A stretch of 52,373 bases of DNA from Pseudomonas phage P7869 (PV173770.1), one strand, 5' to 3'. Positions 7,187-50,700 are shown, counted from the first letter of the stretch. Notes: generated by a model from the sequence alone, not told the origin. Program-made: numbers and translations.

Positions 7187-7759
7187 ATGCGCGACAGTAA
7201 TGTTTTCGAGATTAAGAGATTGGCTGATGGGCTGGACGCTGCTTTGAAGGCGACCGATGCCTATGAGTACCTAATAGATCGGATAGCCGCTGTCTTCCTG
7301 AAATGCAGCCTCGTCCGAACTGTCGGCCTATTCGATGAGATGGCAGTCCTCGAAGCGATCAACGAGATCGATCTTTGCATCAAAGCCTCTGGCGAAGACT
7401 CGCGCGTCGCGGGCTTGTGTCGCTACGCTTTGGAGCTATCTGGCGTAGGGGAAAACGAATTGATGATCGACGGTGACGGGAAGGTGAAGCGCCGCATGGT
7501 TTACTTCATTCGGAACAGTCGTGGATCGATCAAGATCGGTTCGAGTATGAATGTCGAGGATCGCCTACATCAGCTTGAAACTGGAGCTGGCGAACGCCTC
7601 GAACTTATAGCCTCTGTACCAGGATCCTTCGGTGCGGAGCGAGAGCTACACGCGCGGTTTACTGGTTTGCGCGAGCATGGCGAATGGTTCAGCCCTGGGG
7701 AGGAATTGCTGGAGTACATCAACCAGCTTCAATTGACCTTCGGCCTCGACGCCGCCTAA
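7187..7759 (+). CDS. GIY-YIG (T5orf172-type) domain protein with unknown N-terminal domain
   Basis: C-terminal VYFIRNSRGSIKIGSS...ERLHQLETGAGERLELIA...AERELHARF...EWF is a GIY-YIG/T5orf172 signature. It has its own upstream intergenic region and a downstream terminator. Confidence 0.6.
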   Translation: MRDSNVFEIKRLADGLDAALKATDAYEYLIDRIAAVFLKCSLVRTVGLFDEMAVLEAINEIDLCIKASGEDSRVAGLCRYALELSGVGENELMIDGDGKVKRRMVYFIRNSRGSIKIGSSMNVEDRLHQLETGAGERLELIASVPGSFGAERELHARFTGLREHGEWFSPGEELLEYINQLQLTFGLDAA

Positions 7760-7779
7760 CCCAATCGCGACGAACGAAA

Positions 7780-7800
7780 GCCCGCCTTGAGCGGGCTTCG
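7780..7800 (+). terminator. Intrinsic terminator-like hairpin (GCCCGC-cttga-GCGGGC) plus U-rich tail
   Basis: Stem-loop seen directly after the 7759 stop. It is part of the repeated junction module (see findings). Confidence 0.55.
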
Positions 7801-7820
7801 TCGTTTCTGGAGATCATGAA

Positions 7821-8183
7821 ATGACCGACCAAGCAATCGAGCAAGAAATCCAGGCCAAGGGCCTGACCGCTCCCCGCATCACGCCTGCTGACGTTGAGGC
7901 GAACATCGTGGGTGAATACTTCTTCACTGCCGAGGATGGGGTGAAGACCGCTTTCAACCAGCAGGATGAGCTGACGCGTTTGACGGGATACCACGCCGAG
8001 CTGGGATTGCTGACCTTCTGCGTACTGGTACTGAAGAACGGCTTCACCGTCACCGGCGAGTCGGCCTGTGCGAGCCCGGCGAACTTCGACGCGGAGATCG
8101 GCCGGAAAATCTCCCGGCAGAATGCCGTCTCCAAAATCTGGCCACTGATGGGCTACGAACTGCGTAGCAGACTGGCTGACTGA
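7821..8183 (+). CDS. Gp49-like phage protein (Phage_gp49_66-type)
   Basis: LTFCVLVLKNGFTVTGESACASPANFDAEIGRKISRQNAVSKIWPLMGYELR is the hallmark of this family. Confidence 0.5.
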   Translation: MTDQAIEQEIQAKGLTAPRITPADVEANIVGEYFFTAEDGVKTAFNQQDELTRLTGYHAELGLLTFCVLVLKNGFTVTGESACASPANFDAEIGRKISRQNAVSKIWPLMGYELRSRLAD

Positions 8184-15760: not shown

Positions 15761-18455
15761 CGGAGAACCGCTGGAGCGGCATCCGATCGGCCGCAGGATG
15801 ACGATTCATGCCTGGCTGACCGCGAATTCGCCTGGGTACCGCTGCCACGATGTACACCCGTTCTCCATCGGCGTTGTCCCCGCTGAGGTTGCGCTCTGCG
15901 ATGACCTCACCGATAAGCAGAAAAAGGCGCATGAGGAGTTCGTCCACCCTGGCGAGTGGGCCGAGCGCATCATCGACCGCGGCGACATTGTTCGTATCTA
16001 CAAGCTGCCACGCGGGACTGATCCGTTCACGATCACCGCGGCACTGTTCAAAGGCGTCCAGTCGGCATTCCGGATGCTCATGCCGCAGTTGCCCGGCATG
16101 CCCACAAACCCGGGGCAGGGCGAGTCACTGGCAGACTCCAGTGCGCGCGGAAACAAAGTCAAGCTTGGCGATGCCATTCGTGAGGTTGCCGGCCGTCGCT
16201 TGATCTTCCCCGACTACATCCTGCCGCCCAGGAAGTATTTCGCTGGCCCGCGTGAGCAGTGGACCGAAATGCTGCTGTGCATCGGTCGTGGTCGGTTCCA
16301 GATCCAGGAAGGCGGCGTAAAGATCGGCGATACCACGTTCCTCGCGCTGGGCGCGGAAGCTTCGTTTCAGATTTTCGAGCCAGGCCAGAGTCTTGGTTCC
16401 CACCCATCCGCCATCTGGTGGCACTCCGCGCCGGAGGTGGGCGCTAGCTCGACAGGTAATGCTGGCCTGGAACTCACCGAGTCCTCGACGCTGACCCCGA
16501 ACCCAACCGCAACGACCTTCACGTTCTCGGGGAGCAACATCATTATCCCGTCTGGCGCCGGCTCGTTCCCGTCTGACTGGGTTGCCGGAACGATCCTGCG
16601 AGTAGAGGCGCAGTATCCGTACACCGTCGTCGACGGCGGTGGAAGCGCGCGCGACACGATCTCGGGCGATATCGCGCAGCTTGGCCTGTCTGTCGGGACT
16701 GAGATTCAGGTCGTCGGCGTTAACTCGGGGCTCTACGTCGTAAACACCGTCAACTCCACAAACCTCACGCTGAACTACGACAGCGGCGCCCCCGTAAATG
16801 CCCTGCAGGTGGGTGCCGGTGATGCCGCAATCGGTCTGCGCGGGCTCCGGTTCCGAATCACTGCGTACGGCGCCCAGCAGATCACCGTAGAGCGCCTGAC
16901 GTCTGCCGGGGCTACTGATCCAACCTGGCCAGGCTTCTCCCCGCTGAACTCCAGTACGTCGCGCATCACCGTTGATACCTCGAACTCCGAGGGAGGCTGG
17001 CGCGGCCCATTCCCTGCGTGCCCGGCGGGCGAGAAAACGAGCGTTGTCGAGTGGGATATCTTTTGCCCAAACGGGTTGATATTCATCGACCGCAAGGGCA
17101 ACCAAATCCCCTTGAGTGGCTACTACACGGTCCAGTACCGCGACATGGATATCGGTGGCGCATGGACCTCGCTCGACTATCAGCATAACGGAGCCACGCT
17201 CGACCAAATCGGGTTCACGACGCGCCTGAATCTCCCGTACGCCATGCGACCAGAGATCCGCATGCGGCAGCGATACCCCATCGGGAAGAACGAACTGGAG
17301 TTCCGCGACACGCTGCAATGGTACGGCCTACGTTCGCAGCTCCAGGCGCCGACCTCATACGCTGGCGTGACGGTGCTCGCGGTTCGGTATCGGTCCTCTG
17401 ATCGCATATCCGCACAGACCGAAAGCCGCGTCTCGGTAGAGGCTACCCGCATGCTACCGACTCGGCAGAACGGTGCATGGACACCCGAGATCGCAACGCG
17501 AGACATCGTCCCGTTCCTCTGCTACATCGCGAAGGAACGCGGCTATACCGATGCGGATCTCGATCTTGAGGAGCTCGATCGGCTGGATGCCATCTGGAAG
17601 TCCCGCGGCGACACGTTCGACATGATCTATGAGGACGGCAAGGTCACGGTGGCGCAGATCATGGACGACGTTCTTGCAGCCGGGTATGCTGAGAAGACCA
17701 TCAAACGCGGCGTGATCTCTGCGGCCAGAGACGAGCCCAGGACAACGTTCGGGCACATGTACTCGCCGCAGAACATGGATGGTCCGCTGAGGATCAGCAT
17801 CAGCGCTCCCTCGGAGGACGACTACGACGGTGTTGATGTGGAGTTCGTCAATGCCAACGGCTGGATCGAAGATACCGTCCAGTGCCGCCTGCCAGGGGAT
17901 GTCGGCAGGAAGGTCGAGAAAATCACGGCTGTCGGCGTCACAAACCGCGACCGAGCCTGGCGCTACGGGATGCGCCGCAGGATGGCACAGCGATACCGGC
18001 GAACCGAGTACTCGTTCGATACCGGACTCGACGCGCTGAACAGCGAGTTCTGGGATTACGTGGCTCTCGCCGGCGATGTCCCCGGCCCTGGCCTGGCGCA
18101 GAGCGCATACCTGAAATCGTTCGTGATCGCTGGAAACTCGGTCCTGATCGAGTCCAGCGAACCGCTCGACTGGTCGCTGCTGAACTCTCCAGCGTTGTAC
18201 CTGCGCCGCCCAGATGGAACGGTATCCGGCGGATACCCGGCATCTCGGATCGACGACTATCGGCTAAGCATTCCCAGCATCGATTTCGTCCCCGATGTTT
18301 CCTGGGAAATCGAACCGCCGCACCTGCTGCTGGGAAACCCATACCCGGCCCTGATCAGTTCCATCGATCCCAATGGCAATACCTCGGCATCCGTTCGTGC
18401 GGTGAACTACGACCCCAGGGTCTACACCTACGACAACGCCAGCGCCCCGAACTGA
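15732..18455 (+). CDS. Host specificity / central tail fiber protein (lambda J-like)
   Basis: About 907-aa ORF after the K-like gene. GTG 15732 is the likely start, since the longer frame overlaps the K-like gene. Confidence 0.6.
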   Translation: MIEIYPSLLDGEPLERHPIGRRMTIHAWLTANSPGYRCHDVHPFSIGVVPAEVALCDDLTDKQKKAHEEFVHPGEWAERIIDRGDIVRIYKLPRGTDPFTITAALFKGVQSAFRMLMPQLPGMPTNPGQGESLADSSARGNKVKLGDAIREVAGRRLIFPDYILPPRKYFAGPREQWTEMLLCIGRGRFQIQEGGVKIGDTTFLALGAEASFQIFEPGQSLGSHPSAIWWHSAPEVGASSTGNAGLELTESSTLTPNPTATTFTFSGSNIIIPSGAGSFPSDWVAGTILRVEAQYPYTVVDGGGSARDTISGDIAQLGLSVGTEIQVVGVNSGLYVVNTVNSTNLTLNYDSGAPVNALQVGAGDAAIGLRGLRFRITAYGAQQITVERLTSAGATDPTWPGFSPLNSSTSRITVDTSNSEGGWRGPFPACPAGEKTSVVEWDIFCPNGLIFIDRKGNQIPLSGYYTVQYRDMDIGGAWTSLDYQHNGATLDQIGFTTRLNLPYAMRPEIRMRQRYPIGKNELEFRDTLQWYGLRSQLQAPTSYAGVTVLAVRYRSSDRISAQTESRVSVEATRMLPTRQNGAWTPEIATRDIVPFLCYIAKERGYTDADLDLEELDRLDAIWKSRGDTFDMIYEDGKVTVAQIMDDVLAAGYAEKTIKRGVISAARDEPRTTFGHMYSPQNMDGPLRISISAPSEDDYDGVDVEFVNANGWIEDTVQCRLPGDVGRKVEKITAVGVTNRDRAWRYGMRRRMAQRYRRTEYSFDTGLDALNSEFWDYVALAGDVPGPGLAQSAYLKSFVIAGNSVLIESSEPLDWSLLNSPALYLRRPDGTVSGGYPASRIDDYRLSIPSIDFVPDVSWEIEPPHLLLGNPYPALISSIDPNGNTSASVRAVNYDPRVYTYDNASAPN

Positions 18456-18475
18456 CCCGCACACACAAAACCAGA

Positions 18476-18499
18476 GCCCGCCAATAGAGCGGGCTTTTT
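18476..18499 (+). terminator. Intrinsic terminator (GCCCGC-caataga-GCGGGC + T5)
   Basis: Hairpin and T-tract directly after the J-like stop. Confidence 0.6.
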
Positions 18500-18517
18500 C
18501 ATGCCCGGAGAATTTGC

Positions 18518-20575
18518 ATGACGACCTACGCCACCGGTAACCCGCTGGGCTCAAAAGACCCGCGTGATTTGTACGACAACGCCGAGAACTTCGACGCGGC
18601 GATGAATGACCGTACGAATGTTGCGTGGAGAGACAGGTTCGGTGTTTCGCGGAAAACCTGGTTTGGCATCGAGGATCAGGTAAACACCTCCCTCGCCCGA
18701 TCTGGGTTCGAGTTGCCACCGTTGCAGTATGTCGATGGTTCCCCGTTGACCGTAGATCGCTCGACCCAGATCATCGAGCGGGGTGGCAATCTTTATAGTG
18801 TAAAACTTCCATCTTCGTTCCCTGTCGTTCTTTCTGGCAATTGGTCTGAAGATGAAGTTTTACTTGTTGTACGTGGCGATCAGTCTCTTCGCCAAGAAAT
18901 AACTAGCACTTCTCCAAGTGAAGGTTCTTCCATCATTGGTAATTCGACCGTCTCTGTTTCTTCTGTCGCTGATATAAAAAATCAGACAAAGAGAGCGGAT
19001 CTCAAACTATCTTTGTCCTCCTATCATCCTCTTGGAAAATCAGGCGGCGGGACCTTCATTTGGAGTCCATCAACTCCAAAGTCTAATCATGATGGAGGAA
19101 CAATTTTTAGTCCAACCGTTCCATGGGATGGTTCTCAGTCAACTCTTTCCGACTACCTAGATGGAGAAGGCGAAACTGACCCTTCTGGATCTGGCTGTTG
19201 GTTAAGGATTTTCGATGAAGTTAAGTTGGAATATTTTGGCGGACTAATAAGTGAGACTATAGATTCTTCAGCATCTTTTTTGGCTGCAATTAAATATTGT
19301 TTGTCAAACAATAAAGAGCTTAATCTTCCAGATGGTGTTGTTCGCCTTAATTCTCCTGCTGTAATTAATGGATCTACCACTCTTTTCTCTTCTGTTAAGA
19401 TTCGAGGAACCTTCAAGACGAGTGGAGTATCTGCTGGGTATGTGGTAAGCCGAGTAGGAAGCCTTATCTATACTGACGGTAACAGCGCTCTAGATATCTC
19501 GTTCAATGACTTCAGGAATGAAAATTTCGATATCCGTGGCGTGGCATTTGTAGATACATCATTCTATCCAGCCGGAACCCCTGTAAATCCAAATCCTGCA
19601 ATCGTTATCAGGAAGGGTAATCCTGACGCAAGTAGTAACAGATACATAACAGGCAACGTTCTTGAGGATGTTGCTTTCGTTAGCTATCAAGACGCTGTGA
19701 AAACTATTGGGGTTGCAACAGGGTTGCCCACCTATAACTACGTTGGTCCAACTTCGTTGAATCGTGTGTATTTCTACAAGTGCGGCACCGCTATGCATCT
19801 ACAGGATTGCACGTACAATCACCTGTTCCTGAACGAGTGCCTACTCTTCGATCTGTCGTCGCAGTCTATTTTCCTGACCAAGACGGTTAGCGGAACTGGC
19901 GGGAACGTAGATGTAACGTTCAGCAACTGTGTATTCGAATCAATTTGGGGGATTATGAATACTGCTAATGGATTGACGTCTTCCACGAAGCGCAACACCG
20001 CAGTTTTCAACTCGTGCAATAGAGAGTTCTGCGGCCTTTATGGACCGACTGGTGGCGGCGGAAACTTCGCAGGAAGCCCGCTTGGGTATATTGGTCATAC
20101 TGATGTAATGATCAATGGCAATTGGGAGAGAGGCCAGGCATTTGGTGAAACTGCCTTGCCAGCGATTGATTCTGGCGCTGTTATTTTTGCGAGCAGGTAC
20201 GTTGATGTTCTCATGAATGGCGGTCAAGTTGGGTCGCCAGAATATGTCAACGTCGTTGACTTTAGCGGAACGATTCCAGCATCTGGCAGCCTGACAAAAA
20301 CTTTCAATGTGAGCGGTTCGTTTGTGTTGAATGCTGACGTCGCCTATGACGACGGGTTTGGCGGGCACCAGAATGTCGTTGCGTATGGCAACCCAACTGG
20401 CTCAAAAGCGAGGGATGTGACAGGGACAATCATCTCTGCTGGCTTGACTGCAACCTACGGCGATGGCCCATCTGGCGCGGCGTTCACGGTAACGTTCAAC
20501 AACGGTACCGCGTCGCCGATCAATGTGAAGATCCGAGTCACGAACAAAGCCGGCCTGATCGTTACTGTTTCATGA
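18518..20575 (+). CDS. Tail fiber / tailspike with beta-helix (pectate-lyase-like) repeats
   Basis: Conserved GC-rich N-terminal anchor [26 protein letters not shown]. The central body is AT-rich and shows beta-helix-like repeats ([11 protein letters not shown]..., [16 protein letters not shown]). Confidence 0.75.
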
Positions 20576-20600
20576 GATGCAGCCCGAGACTCTATGACCA

Positions 20601-20625
20601 GCCCGCACTCTGCGGGCTTTTTTTT
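20601..20625 (+). terminator. Intrinsic terminator (GCCCGCA-ctc-TGCGGGC + T8)
   Basis: Strong hairpin plus poly-T after the tail fiber stop. Confidence 0.7.
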
Positions 20626-20641
20626 GTGCCTGGAGATCAGC

Positions 20642-20728
20642 ATGCCTATCACTGAGCAGCAACTGCTGCAAATCCTCCCGAACGCCGGCGCGATGGCCGG
20701 CGTTAGGTCAGCCACTAGCGGATGCTGA
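20642..20728 (+). pseudogene. 28-codon remnant resembling the N-terminus of a GH19-type endolysin (MPITEQQLLQILPNAG...)
   Basis: Good RBS (GGAGA). The N-terminal 16 aa resemble the conserved start of GH19 phage lysozymes. The frame collapses just before the inserted terminator/RBS module that precedes the GH24 lysin. Confidence 0.3.
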
Positions 20729-20797
20729 AATCAGAATACCCGTGCTGCTGGTGATCCTGGCCGGTAGCTGACCCGAACACCTTTCCGACGAAGATAG

Positions 20798-20815
20798 GCC
20801 CGCCATTGAGCGGGC
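20798..20815 (+). terminator. Hairpin GCCCGC-cattga-GCGGGC (second copy of the junction module)
   Basis: Followed by the same 17-nt TTCGTCGTTTCTGGAGA block seen at 7797-7813. Confidence 0.45.
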
Positions 20816-20839
20816 TTCGTCGTTTCTGGAGACCCGTAA

Positions 20840-21274
20840 ATGCGTACTTCCCAACGAGGCATAGACCTCATCAAATCGTTCGAGGGCCTGCGCTTGTCCG
20901 CCTATCAGGACTCGGTGGGTGTCTGGACCATCGGCTATGGCACTACGCGGGGCGTGACCCGCTACATGACGATCACCGTTGAGCAGGCCGAGCGGATGTT
21001 GGCCAATGACATTCAGCGCTTCGAGCCTGAACTGGACAAGCTGGTGAAAGTGCCACTGAACCAGAACCAGTGGGATGCCCTGATGAGCTTCGTCTATAAC
21101 CTGGGCGCGGCAAATCTTGCGTCGTCCACTCTGCTCAAGCTGCTGAACAAGGGTGACTACCAGGGAGCAGCGGACCAGTTCCCTCGCTGGGTGAATGCGG
21201 GTGGTAAGCGCTTGGAAGGGCTGGTAAAGCGCCGAGCGGCGGAACGTGTCCTGTTCCTGGAGCCGCTGTCGTGA
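20840..21274 (+). CDS. Endolysin, GH24 (T4-lysozyme-like) muramidase, no signal/SAR sequence
   Basis: SFEGLRLSAYQDSVGVWTIGYGTT contains the catalytic E/D/T triad context of GH24. Confidence 0.9.
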   Translation: MRTSQRGIDLIKSFEGLRLSAYQDSVGVWTIGYGTTRGVTRYMTITVEQAERMLANDIQRFEPELDKLVKVPLNQNQWDALMSFVYNLGAANLASSTLLKLLNKGDYQGAADQFPRWVNAGGKRLEGLVKRRAAERVLFLEPLS

Positions 21275-21639
21275 TCTCCGCTCGCGCTTTATCGGTCGCG
21301 CTGGCCTGCCTGGTGCTGGTCGGCCTCGGCACCGCCGGCGGTGTCTGGCTCGGCGCGCGACACTACCGGCCGCAGCTGGATGCCGTGAGCGCGGATCTGG
21401 CTGCCTGCCGTGCCTCCCGGGGAGAGTTGGAGTCCGCAGTGGCAGAGCAGGTCCGGCAGGTTGCCGCGCTGCGCATGGCCGGCGAGCAGCGCGCCCGGGA
21501 TGCCGCGCAGGCTGTGGAGCGGGGGCGGCAGCAGGCCGCGGAGCAGTATGCCGGAGCCCAGCGCCTGCTGAGCCAGCGAACTGCTGGTGATCAGTGCCTG
21601 GCAGCCGAAGTGGTCATCGATCAGGAGTTAGGTCTATGA
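21271..21639 (+). CDS. i-spanin (Rz-like): N-terminal TM plus coiled coil
   Basis: N-terminal TM LSVALACLVLVGLGTAGGVWLG, then Ala/Arg/Gln-rich coiled coil. Directly after the endolysin. Confidence 0.7.
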   Translation: MISARALSVALACLVLVGLGTAGGVWLGARHYRPQLDAVSADLAACRASRGELESAVAEQVRQVAALRMAGEQRARDAAQAVERGRQQAAEQYAGAQRLLSQRTAGDQCLAAEVVIDQELGL

Positions 21640-21899
21640 GGGTGGTGCTGATGCTGGTGGTGTTCGCGCTGGCGGGATGCGCCGGCCAGGTCGAGCCTGA
21701 GCCGCGCACGGTGCGCGTAGAAGTGCCCGTTGCGGTGCCTTGCCGAGTGCCGGCGGTGGAGGTGCCGGCCTGGGCAACCGCTGGGCTGAAGAAGAGCGAC
21801 GATATCCAGACCAAGGTCCGCGCGCTGCTGGCCGAGCGCCGGCAGAGGATAGGTTACGAGGCGCAGCTCCTGGCTGCGAACCGGGCCTGTCAGGATTAG
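21636..21899 (+). CDS. o-spanin (Rz1-like) lipoprotein, separate ORF overlapping i-spanin by 4 nt
   Basis: MRVVLMLVVFALAGC carries the lipobox LAGC. Pro-rich periplasmic segment. Confidence 0.7.
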   Translation: MRVVLMLVVFALAGCAGQVEPEPRTVRVEVPVAVPCRVPAVEVPAWATAGLKKSDDIQTKVRALLAERRQRIGYEAQLLAANRACQD

Positions 21900-21924: not shown

Positions 21925-22195
21925 TGACGGAAACGTGAAGCGCGGAAATGGAAAACGTGAAAAGGAATTTCACGATTGGCACAGTTTAAGTGATTGCGGT
22001 CGGCGTAAACTGTTGTAATATAAGCGCTTCTGAGGTGCGAGACAGGATTTAGGTTCCAGCGCCGCAAGGCGTGAGAGTTCGAGTCTCTCCGTCCGCACCA
22101 CCTTCTAAATCAAGTGTTTACAAGCTTCAGCGGCCCTCCTTGTAGATGCGCTGGATTATCAGCGTGAACAGAACGTGAAATGCGACTTTCACGGA
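21925..22195. other. attP region with arm-type repeats (ACGTGAA / TTTCACG) flanking the core
   Basis: ACGTGAA at 21933, 21955, 22163 (GCGTGAAC) and 22175, and its complement TTTCACG at 21968 and 22187. These bracket a tRNA 3' fragment immediately upstream of int. Confidence 0.6.
22045..22100 (+). other. 3' portion of a type-II tRNA (probably tRNA-Leu, anticodon UAG) = attP core
   Basis: Anticodon arm remnant, long variable arm (CGCC-gcaa-GGCG), T-arm GAGAG-TTCGAGT-CTCTC, acceptor CGTCCGC, discriminator A, CCA. The 5' half is absent. Confidence 0.6.
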
Positions 22196-23219
22196 CTTGA
22201 TCAAGCACCCCAACTGCATCCATTACCCTGGCCGGCGCAAGATGGGCATATCGCTCAGTCATCGCGACTGTAGAGTGTCCAAGCAGATCGCGAACGTCTG
22301 CCAGCGGAACTCCTGCGCTAACCAGCCAGGCCGCACAGGTATGGCGCAGGTCGTGAATCGTAAAGTCTACGATCTTCGCTGCCTGACATGCCTGCTTGAA
22401 ACCTGCCGAAAGAGAGACCACTCGATCACCGTTGGCGCGCGCAAAGACCCAGGGGCATTCTGGGCTTGTCTCGGACCTGAATGCCATTCGTCGCTTTAGT
22501 GCTGCCATCGCCCCTTCGTTGATCGGAATGCTCCGGCGCTTTCCTGCCTTCGTGTGGCTAGCCTCCAGATAGATCAGGCGGTTGGCAAAATCCACTCTGC
22601 GCCACTCCAGACCAAGCATTTCCTCCCGCCGGCATCCGGTGTTCACCGCTAGGCGGATGAAGTCCTCAAGCATCGGGCCAAACTTCTGCCCGCGCGCGGC
22701 TCGGCACAGGCCCTCGACCTCTGCCCTGGTCAGCCAACGATCACGCCCCTCGGCCTCGCGCATCTTCCGTCCCTTTACAGGATTCGGGAGACCCCACTCC
22801 AGTTCGGTGTTGCAATGGTTGATAGCCGCGGATAATGCCGCGAGTTCGCGGTTGATGGTTGCCGGGGATGCGCCGGCGTCCAATCTGTGCGTTCCGTAGC
22901 CCCGGATGTCCTGCCCCCCTAGATCGTTGATCACACGTCCGGCAAAATACTCGCGCAGCGGCTTTATGCGGTGCACGGTCGTTTCGTAGCTGCGCTGATG
23001 CTGGCGAGCGTGTTGCAGATACGGAATGATCACCTCCTCAAAGGTCCTGGGCGGATTCACGCCCATTTCCTTTTCCTTCCACGCTTTCGCGCGTTCCTGT
23101 TGCTCTAGTGCTTTCGCCGCCGAGTAGTCGGCAGTTCCAGAAGAGCGTCTAACAAGCTTTCCTGTTGCTGATTTGAAAGAGATCCACCAGTAGGCGGAGT
23201 CGTTTCTCTTGTACGGCAT
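22110..23219 (-). CDS. int: Tyrosine integrase
   Basis: 369 aa with R...HDLRHT...LGHSTVAMTERYAH catalytic motifs. Adjacent to attP. Confidence 0.9.
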   Translation of the reverse strand: MPYKRNDSAYWWISFKSATGKLVRRSSGTADYSAAKALEQQERAKAWKEKEMGVNPPRTFEEVIIPYLQHARQHQRSYETTVHRIKPLREYFAGRVINDLGGQDIRGYGTHRLDAGASPATINRELAALSAAINHCNTELEWGLPNPVKGRKMREAEGRDRWLTRAEVEGLCRAARGQKFGPMLEDFIRLAVNTGCRREEMLGLEWRRVDFANRLIYLEASHTKAGKRRSIPINEGAMAALKRRMAFRSETSPECPWVFARANGDRVVSLSAGFKQACQAAKIVDFTIHDLRHTCAAWLVSAGVPLADVRDLLGHSTVAMTERYAHLAPARVMDAVGVLDQVRESRISRSVHADNPAHLQGGPLKLVNT

Positions 23220-50035: not shown

Positions 50036-50112
<77 letters not shown>

Positions 50113-50123
50113 ACTCGATTCAA

Positions 50124-50198
50124 TGACGTGTAGCTCAGAGGTAGAGCGGTCGGCTGTTACCCGACTGGTCGATGGTTCGATCCCATCCGCGTCAGCCA
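50124..50198 (+). tRNA. tRNA-Asn (anticodon GUU)
   Basis: 75 nt. Starts with U1 as in bacterial tRNA-Asn. Anticodon stem GTCGG/CCGAC, loop CTGTTAC, T-arm GATGG-TTCGATC-CCATC, discriminator G, CCA encoded. Confidence 0.7.
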
Positions 50199-50202
50199 AT
50201 AA

Positions 50203-50278
50203 GCCGGTATGGCGCAACAGGGAGCGCTGCTGATTTGTAATCAGAGGGTTGCGGGTTTGACTCCTGCTGCCGGCACCA
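50203..50278 (+). tRNA. tRNA-Thr (anticodon UGU)
   Basis: 76 nt. Acceptor GCCGGTA/TGCCGGC, anticodon loop TTTGTAA, T-loop TTTGACT (atypical), discriminator A, CCA encoded. Confidence 0.6.
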
Positions 50279-50287
50279 CACTACAAG

Positions 50288-50313
50288 GCCCAGGCAATGA
50301 CCTGGGCTTTCTG
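50288..50313 (+). terminator. Terminator-like hairpin (GCCCAGG-caatga-CCTGGGC + TTTCTG) after tRNA cluster
   Basis: Seen in sequence. Weak U-tract. Confidence 0.35.
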
Positions 50314-50331
50314 CATCTGGAGTACGTGAAT

Positions 50332-50700
50332 ATGGCCGAGCCGAGTGGTGCGGTAGCAGTCGCCGGCCTGGTCGGTATCGGTGCGTCTGCGTTGATCCCT
50401 GGCATTGATGCCAATGCAGTGATCGGGGCTTTTGCTGGGGCTATCTTCTTCGTGGTGTATGCCAAGGACATCTCGGCCTGGGCTCGCCTTGGCTACTTCG
50501 CTGCGTCCTGGATCGTTGGCTACTACGTCGCCGGCGAAGCCATTGGCCGGGAGTGGGCAAGGACATCGGGCCTGGTTGCCTTTGGTGGGGCATTGTTCTG
50601 CGTCGCAGTGGGCACAAGCTTGCTGGAGTGGGTGCAGGGGGGGAAGACGCCTGGTTGGCTCCGCTTCATAGCGGACCGCTTTGGAGGTCGTAATGGTTGA
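50332..50700 (+). CDS. Holin-like membrane protein (122 aa, 3-4 TM)
   Basis: GGAG RBS. Multiple Gly/Ala-rich TM helices. First late ORF after the tRNAs. The ORF-track start 50209 lies inside tRNA-Thr and is rejected. Confidence 0.4.
   Translation: MAEPSGAVAVAGLVGIGASALIPGIDANAVIGAFAGAIFFVVYAKDISAWARLGYFAASWIVGYYVAGEAIGREWARTSGLVAFGGALFCVAVGTSLLEWVQGGKTPGWLRFIADRFGGRNG

Follow-up and report, generated by a model that had tools for sequence, protein, structure and literature searches.

The comparisons of HK97, HK022 and lambda by Juhala et al. in 2000 and by Hendrix et al. are said to describe mosaic joints between modules, gene remnants and the concept of the 'moron'. In lambdoid coliphages, the endolysins include the lambda R transglycosylase, the P22 gp19 lysozyme and the phage 21 SAR endolysin. 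Quasipalindromes have reportedly been linked, in work by Ripley and Lovett, to template-switch mutations, of which the exact inversion of a loop is said to be the signature. In the R/F-pyocin cluster, the endolysin PaGH19Lys (PA0629; PDB 9EOI) is a crystallised GH19 muramidase with Glu51 as its catalytic residue (PMC12329726).

The DNA considered here is the whole 52,373-nt stretch of PV173770.1 (the window), from P7869, a D3-like (Detrevirus) temperate Pseudomonas aeruginosa phage; positions 1-25000 are ~91% identical to D3 over two thirds. Between the tail-fibre terminator and the GH24 lysin gene lies a 28-codon open reading frame (ORF) with a GGAGA ribosome-binding site (RBS), noted in a first-pass annotation and read directly from the sequence. 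This ORF is very probably a non-functional recombination scar, the fossil of a GH19 lysin that was swapped out. As in the lambdoid mosaics, a non-homologous module has been replaced at gene borders with short leftover fragments at the joints, and, as with lambdoid morons, accessory genes with their own terminators occur between the tail-fibre and lysis genes. Unlike the lambdoid mosaics, the P7869 scar comprises three nested fragments and has an extant intermediate, P54, and its left joint falls on a structured element within the gene that was replaced. As in the lambdoid coliphages, different muralytic families occupy one slot beside conserved spanin genes; unlike in those phages, the holin of P7869 lies outside the cassette, ~22 kb off reading on through the genome end, and only the endolysin is exchanged.

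The features of the locus, in coordinates of the window, are as follows.

18518-20575, plus strand: tail-fibre gene, ORF of 685 aa
20600-20625, plus strand: intrinsic terminator 3' of the tail-fibre gene (stem 20600-20618, 8 bp and GC-rich, 3-nt loop, T8), flagged in the terminator scan
20632-20636, plus strand: GGAGA RBS from the GH19 gene, 5 nt ahead of the ATG at 20642
20642-20728, plus strand: 28-codon ORF, peptide MPITEQQLLQILPNAGAMAGVRSATSGC, stop at 20726-20728
20642-20704, plus strand: 5' stub of a GH19 endolysin gene, codons 1-21, colinear with the U9 GH19 gene (L003 3242-3304)
20681-20704, plus strand: stub hairpin from folding, 9-bp perfect stem AACGCCGGC / GCCGGCGTT, 6-nt loop GCGATG
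20715-20741, minus strand: relic of ant (Bro-N antirepressor) from the comparison of ant genes, stop and last 7-8 codons (..GYSDFSIR, stop)
20739-20771, plus strand: relic of a 38-aa hydrophobic ORF (phrog_34597), last 10 codons (PVLLVILAGS) and stop
20786-20832, plus strand: leader of the GH24 module, hairpin and RBS block (stem 20796-20817 with ACGAAG/CTTCGT extension; GGAGA at 20828-20832)
20840-21274, plus strand: intact GH24 endolysin, 144 aa (PF00959, E 2.6e-52; phrog_7, E 1e-69)
21266-21274, plus strand: right-hand exchange boundary CTGTCGTGA, where the lysin end (..LS, stop) overlaps the GTG start of the Rz-like gene
21271-21639, plus strand: Rz-like gene (phrog_3774)
21636-21899, plus strand: Rz1-like lipoprotein gene with LAGC lipobox (phrog_3580; weak phrog_456 Rz-like spanin match)
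50209-50700, plus strand: holin ORF (phrog_198 holin, E 6e-33, residues 42-155)

The GH24 endolysin matches PF00959 at full length (176.9 bits, gathering cut-off 22.3; positions 1-125 of the 125 in the profile), and the Rz-like and Rz1-like genes that follow it are common to all types of lysin cassette. The holin is encoded far from the lysin, so the exchange touched the endolysin only. At 50036-50700 in the window, the holin ORF comes directly after three phage tRNA genes (Gly, Asn, Thr). This split of the lysis genes, with the holin opening the late region and the lysin and spanins located 3' of the tail fibre, resembles that of the R/F-pyocin cluster.

Two further observations concern the DNA downstream of the spanins. 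A 264-bp ORF of the D3 orf34 type (phrog_3944), which sits 3' of Rz1 in D3, PAJU2, U9, CF23a, PMG1 and phi297, is missing from P7869 (21893-21903 compared with L007 11614-11888); the boundaries of the loss share ~4-5 nt (GAGT), so the lysis region seems to have undergone a second deletion at microhomology here. A sub-threshold tRNA-like match at 21996-22097 (24.5 bits, gathering score 29) adjoins the integrase gene (22110-23219, minus strand), at a position that corresponds to D3 attP, and is probably the tRNA 3' fragment of the attachment site.

The 28-codon reading frame

The earlier annotation likened the first 16 residues of the ORF product to the N-terminus of GH19 lysozymes. The resemblance is borne out, and it extends further than proposed, through 21 codons to position 20704. 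In a tblastn search of 50,697 phage records (2.3 Gb of phage DNA), the 28-aa peptide matches 81 records, all from Pseudomonas phages. In 59 of these, residues 1-21 are matched at 86-90% identity (E ~1e-4), and the matches are the N-termini of genes annotated as endolysin, lytic enzyme or pyocin lytic enzyme. The full 28 residues are matched in 22 phage records, including R656, P54, 5371, 5399, phita81A and the CF/BR series. The sole match in the PDB is to PaGH19Lys (9EOI), to whose residues 1-21 residues 1-21 of the stub align. The similarity search that had been named in advance as the test of the idea thus returns GH19 N-termini.

A comparison with phages that have a GH19 lysin at this locus, also suggested at the outset, agrees. 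U9 has the same 685-aa tail fibre and an identical terminator, followed by an intact 209-aa GH19 lysin (PF00182; 9EOI, E 9.5e-102), and positions 20560-20689 of the window, from the tail-fibre end through the GH19 start, are 98.5% identical to U9 at the DNA level. The TGGAGA-N5-ATG layout at the head of the ORF is likewise that of intact GH19 genes. P7869 and U9 are colinear over 17398-20704, diverge for ~560 nt, and are colinear again from 21265 at the Rz-like start; since homology stops at 20704 and resumes at 21265, the body of the GH19 gene appears to have been replaced by the GH24 block. The interpretation as a fossil of lysin exchange is upheld by this comparison. Chance resemblance to GH19 is ruled out by the tblastn matches, the DNA identity with U9 and the PDB match.

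The homology to GH19 covers codons 1-21 of the 28 in the ORF, and the remaining seven codons and the stop are antisense to the 3' end of ant. In comparison with PaGH19Lys, the stub stops 30 residues before Glu51 and lacks any GH19 domain. Of what defines the family, it has N-terminal homology and not the catalytic domain with Glu51, and on these alignments it is a fragment of a GH19 gene and not a family member. Its homology to a syntenic intact gene ends abruptly, and the DNA past the breakpoint belongs to other truncated genes, as is typical of a gene remnant.

The frame had been described as ending just ahead of an inserted hairpin and RBS block that heads the GH24 gene. The hairpin/RBS block is found in all GH24 relatives, and is therefore part of the incoming GH24 module, as proposed. 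The frame does not end immediately before it; the stop lies 57 nt before the block at 20786-20832 and 67 nt before the stem at 20796, and the 57-nt interval holds fragments of two further genes.

Antirepressor relics and the lysin slot

The records examined from CF23a, R656 and P54 share the stub and its breakpoint; downstream of it they have a Bro-N antirepressor gene on the reverse strand (ant), accessory ORFs, the 38-aa hydrophobic ORF, the hairpin/RBS block and the GH24 gene. The junction after GH19 codon 21 is common to ~22 other phage records, and was thus inherited rather than being specific to P7869. The ant products end in ..RYSGLSIR in CF23a, R656 and P54, in ..QYSDLSIR in PAShipCat1 and in ..QYSEFRIR in PAJU2, each before a stop. 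C-termini of the form ..YSxxSIR are also encoded by ant genes in other contexts, so the minus-strand ..YSDFSIR of P7869 is a true relic. In P7869, 20705-20714 corresponds to the 3' flank of ant, and 20705-20743 as a whole matches this flank, the stop and the last codons. The 38-aa ORF is intact in CF23a (MPTSHFLNFCIEVSLLILACGAAAWLSSPVLLAILAGS, then a stop) and truncated at its 5' end in P7869; Pfam returned nothing for it, or for D3 orf31, orf34 and the HNH ORF. The alignments establish the homologies, the breakpoints and the truncation of both flanking genes. A single clean exchange of GH19 for GH24 is ruled out by the relics of ant and of the 38-aa ORF.

P54 is colinear with 17626-20743 of P7869 (88%) and with 20739-21487 (96%), with 2092 bp extra in between. 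The deletion junction in P7869 is located at 20739-20743, and, with the exceptions of phi1 and PP9W2, all GH24 phages are homologous to P7869 from 20739-20742 onwards. The ant module is already decaying in P54, where a frameshift disrupts ant and a nonsense codon the 38-aa ORF. C4 antisense and isrK RNAs lie upstream of ant in P54, above the Rfam gathering thresholds, which makes the module the counterpart of those of the P1/P7 immI type (Rfam RF01695, RF03163; isrK RF01394). In the P54 module (L023 3086-5206), the C4 RNA scores 59.9 bits and isrK 61.5 bits, and a c4 a1/b1 target and a HIRAN-domain ORF are also present. The C4-RNA/antirepressor module is found in P54, CF23a and R656, whereas P7869 keeps only the stop and last 7-8 codons of ant, and an Rfam search of the P7869 locus gave no RNA match.

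The arrangement seen in P7869 is absent from the phage collection, in which no record covers at least 80% of the query. It is present in two IMG/VR contigs, and its spacer is identical (264/264 nt) in seven examined loci of bacterial assemblies; at least 24 contigs encode this exact GH24 protein. In one of the seven loci, a prophage (L014 1-2758), the spacer, GH24 gene and spanins are 100% identical from 20574, the tail fibre is an unrelated protein of 374 aa, and the recombination joint falls exactly at the tail-fibre stop codon.

The GH24 leader at 20786-20832 is a near-copy of an intergenic block at 7768-7813, between the ORFs at 7187-7759 and 7821-8183. Its 22-nt core, GCGGGCTTCGTCGTTTCTGGAG, recurs exactly at 7791-7812 in the window, where no such recurrence is expected by chance. 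Blocks resembling this leader lie ahead of the R656 stub (L002 3442-3495) and, in another locus (L031), ahead of an intact GH19 gene. Rfam has no family for the GH24 leader.

Among close relatives, three types of lysin are found in this slot. It is GH19 in U9 and FBPa47, GH24 in P7869, PAJU2, PAShipCat1, phi1, P54, R656 and CF23a, and a lambda-R-type lysozyme in D3, PMG1 and phi297 (1AM7, E 3.6e-50), D3 orf31 having been identified via the PDB. All three types end in ..CTGTCGTGA (..LS, stop), overlapping the GTG start of the Rz-like gene, and this right boundary is identical in the cassettes of U9 (GH19), D3 (lambda type), and P7869 and CF23a (GH24); the homology of P7869 to D3, like that to U9, resumes at 21265. 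Judged from these sequences, the slot serves as a general point of lysin exchange.

D3 (L007 9667-9745), PMG1 and phi297 (L021 and L022 2501-2580) likewise have a GH19 stub, unannotated and ~26 codons long, which lies upstream of the lambda-type lysozyme, with wzy-beta on one side and an HNH endonuclease gene on the reverse strand on the other. This stub reads a different tail than the P7869 stub. Its breakpoint differs (~codon 26), and it marks an independent replacement; with the HNH gene next to it, conversion of the cassette driven by the endonuclease is a possibility. PAJU2 and PAShipCat1 have an O-antigen acetylase gene upstream and keep just the hairpin part of the stub, beside ant.

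A conserved hairpin in GH19 lysin genes

The P7869 stub ends at the last base of its 9-bp hairpin (20681-20704; -21.4 kcal/mol, z -3.1), which is a relic of a hairpin conserved within GH19 lysin genes. The corresponding region was compared across GH19 lysin genes of the MPITEQQLLQILPNA[GR]xxAG[VI]F subfamily, of which 108 distinct 5' ends were taken from IMG/VR and from genomes sampled one per species; the set spans many Pseudomonas groups and includes a pyocin-type gene. The same structure is formed by nucleotides +40 to +63 in 95.6% of cells (n=108), whereas slid controls give 31-57%. One covarying pair, C-G in 52 sequences, G-C in 50, A-U in two and unpaired in four, joins base 1 of codon 16 (Gly GGC, Arg CGC or Ser AGC) to the synonymous third base of Ala19 (GCC, GCG or GCT). 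A second pair occurs as C-G, U-A and A-U, with a U-G intermediate. A neighbour-joining tree built from residue 27 to the end requires at least 11 changes of state in the first pair; these 11 are not taken as independent events, since genes that recombine in their 5' ends could raise the count. The covariation is evidence that the hairpin structure itself is under selection in GH19 genes. RNAalifold found no structure in a gappy alignment of 70 sequences (A4); applied to a diverse subset of 12 sequences, it recovers the hairpin, and pairs were also counted explicitly.

In intact genes, the hairpin is followed by a T-run, the two occupying nucleotides +40 to +69 of the ORF (alignment A5, columns 40-69). 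The T-run is built from codons that are rare in these genes. For Phe22, TTT outnumbers TTC by 57 to 6 at the site, compared with 53 to 201 elsewhere in the same genes; GTT makes up 83 of 99 valine codons at positions 21 and 23 (51 of 450 elsewhere) and ATT all 8 isoleucine codons at position 21 (66 of 515 elsewhere). A simple scan calls the hairpin and T-run a terminator in the intact U9 GH19 gene (L003 3280-3313) and in the D3 stub (L007 9705-9738), and the intragenic element looks like a terminator. The D3-type stub keeps the T-run. The P7869 stub has the GC-rich stem-loop and lacks the U-run (GCCGGCGTT being followed by AGGTCAGCC), and is therefore not terminator-like.

ORF-internal intrinsic terminators and premature 3' ends are reported in 3'-end maps of E. 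coli and P. aeruginosa (PMC7815308, PMC8297930). The GH19 element shares with them a GC-rich stem and a U-run soon after a start codon; it differs as a predicted terminator within conserved coding DNA, kept by compensatory nonsynonymous/synonymous pairs and rare codons. In the supplement to the P. aeruginosa 3'-end map, there are almost no reads in the pyocin lysis operon (PA0628-PA0632), so the map says nothing on the hairpin. No family for the GH19/stub hairpin was found in Rfam and no description of it in literature searches that included intragenic terminators in lysins; as far as could be found, it is undescribed.

The loop of the hairpin has itself been inverted. GCGATG at 20690-20695 in P7869 is the exact reverse complement of CATCGC in another locus (L044), and TCGAGG in a further locus (L035 1549-1554) is the reverse complement of the common CCTCGA. 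Exact loop inversion, at least twice, between perfect inverted repeats suggests template switching at a quasipalindrome; unlike the quasipalindromes of reporter assays, this is natural polymorphism in a phage lysin gene and its remnant. In ..AGIFLPA.. variants (for example L121, L124, L135 and L140), the right arm can instead pair with a downstream TGCCTGC across the T-run (nucleotides +52 to +80), and this pairing and the main hairpin are mutually exclusive.

It may be that the hairpin and U-run, within the first 70 nt of GH19 genes in Pseudomonas phages and in tailocin/pyocin clusters of many species, form a new cis-element that is both a conditional intragenic terminator and a preferred breakpoint for exchange, a tentative and somewhat doubtful proposal. 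Such a terminator would let transcription of the lysin and spanins pass only for antiterminated or otherwise licensed polymerase. The quasipalindrome, prone to template switching, may be the preferred breakpoint for lysin cassettes and morons, as judged from just two independent breakpoints; that role, if true, would explain why the P7869-type and D3-type stubs both end just past the hairpin.

Proposed history of the scar and other readings

The order of events that we infer begins with an ancestor of the U9 type, with tail fibre, terminator, GH19 endolysin and Rz/Rz1. The body of the GH19 gene, from codon 22 to the last codons, would have been replaced by a foreign block comprising a reverse-strand C4-RNA/antirepressor module, accessory ORFs, the 38-aa ORF, the hairpin/RBS leader and the GH24 endolysin. 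The left joint of this replacement would be the 3' edge of the hairpin inside GH19, and the right joint would lie within the CTGTCGTGA overlap of lysin stop and Rz start. The ant-bearing state persists in P54, R656 and the CF/BR phages. In the lineage of P7869, ~2.1 kb between the 3' ends of ant and of the 38-aa ORF would later have been lost by illegitimate recombination at 2-5 nt of microhomology (..ATACC/CGTGCTG.., the slash marking the joint), the ant module probably having decayed before its deletion. The result would be three abutting gene fragments within 130 nt, with the GH24 gene expressed from its own RBS. The stub retains the GH19 RBS and start codon, so a 28-aa peptide is probably translated, presumably without a role.

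The preservation of the stub could be read differently. The frame has 28 open codons in P7869, P54, R656 and the loci L009-L017, and the stub varies less than the DNA flanking it; both could be the outcome of selection and not of recent recombination. The ORF might then encode a functional micropeptide, such as a lysis regulator, with a good RBS and ATG and a frame open in several lineages. In an IMG/VR contig (L009 1290-1340, reverse strand), the first 11 stub codons are swapped for AT-rich DNA adjoining an AT-rich reverse-strand gene, and a 28-codon ORF is still in frame (MAILEHKLLQILPNAGAMAGVRSATSGC); this different 5' sequence with an open frame would fit a micropeptide as well. However, a TGA is read at codon 18 in CF23a, and 14-17 sister records have the same tblastn identity (78.6%); the D3-type stub has a different tail, the last seven residues are antisense to the ant stop region, residues 17-18 are freely altered by loop inversion, the catalytic domain is missing, and the 28-aa peptide has no family match in PHROGs or Pfam. 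A functional micropeptide is very improbable. Selection might act instead on the hairpin in cis, as an RNA 3' end or insulator between the late tail operon and the genes downstream, which are a convergent ant gene in the relatives and the lysis genes in P7869. The stub would then be a domesticated regulatory fragment. In intact GH19 genes the hairpin is conserved and covaries, and it was kept by two independent truncations, at codon 21 (P7869 type) and at ~codon 26 (D3 type); its stem is perfect in every stub examined, the joint in ant-bearing phages lengthens it to ~12 bp, and PAJU2 and PAShipCat1 retain the hairpin part only, with a compensatory change of A-T to G-C. Yet P7869 has neither ant nor a T-run, and the terminator scan makes no call there; GH24 phages without any stub exist (phi1 and PP9W2), and frequent gene conversion with GH19 phages could also explain the conservation. 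Retention of the stub for its hairpin is accordingly judged unlikely.

The direction of events might also be reversed, with the short P7869-type spacer ancestral and the ant module inserted in the other phages. Just 7-8 codons of ant and 10 of the small ORF are at issue, and chance can produce such short readings out into neighbouring DNA. However, the insert would need to have arrived with no stop at either end and to read out into pre-existing DNA on both sides. The ant genes of PAJU2 and PAShipCat1, beside the O-antigen acetylase gene, have the same C-terminus, the phrog_34597 profile spans the C-terminal residues of the small ORF, and the P54 module is in decay; insertion into a short ancestral spacer is scarcely credible. 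Literature searches on the stub and on the D3 and PAJU2 lysis cassettes found nothing relevant.

Read as the scar of a swapped GH19 lysin, the locus is ordinary phage mosaicism, though unusually well resolved. It gives a stepwise, dated example of how the region between tail fibre and lysis genes is remodelled in temperate Pseudomonas phages, through cassette replacement, acquisition of a moron, and moron decay and deletion, with an extant intermediate that persists. The same region is a landing place of serotype-converting and antirepressor genes. Annotators should be wary of the 28- or 44-codon gene predicted at this site, which is not a true gene. The hairpin and U-run of the GH19 genes could matter more than the scar itself. 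If they do terminate transcription, lysis in Pseudomonas phages and pyocins would have a widespread point of control in them, and modular exchange would also be channelled by a concrete feature of the sequence.
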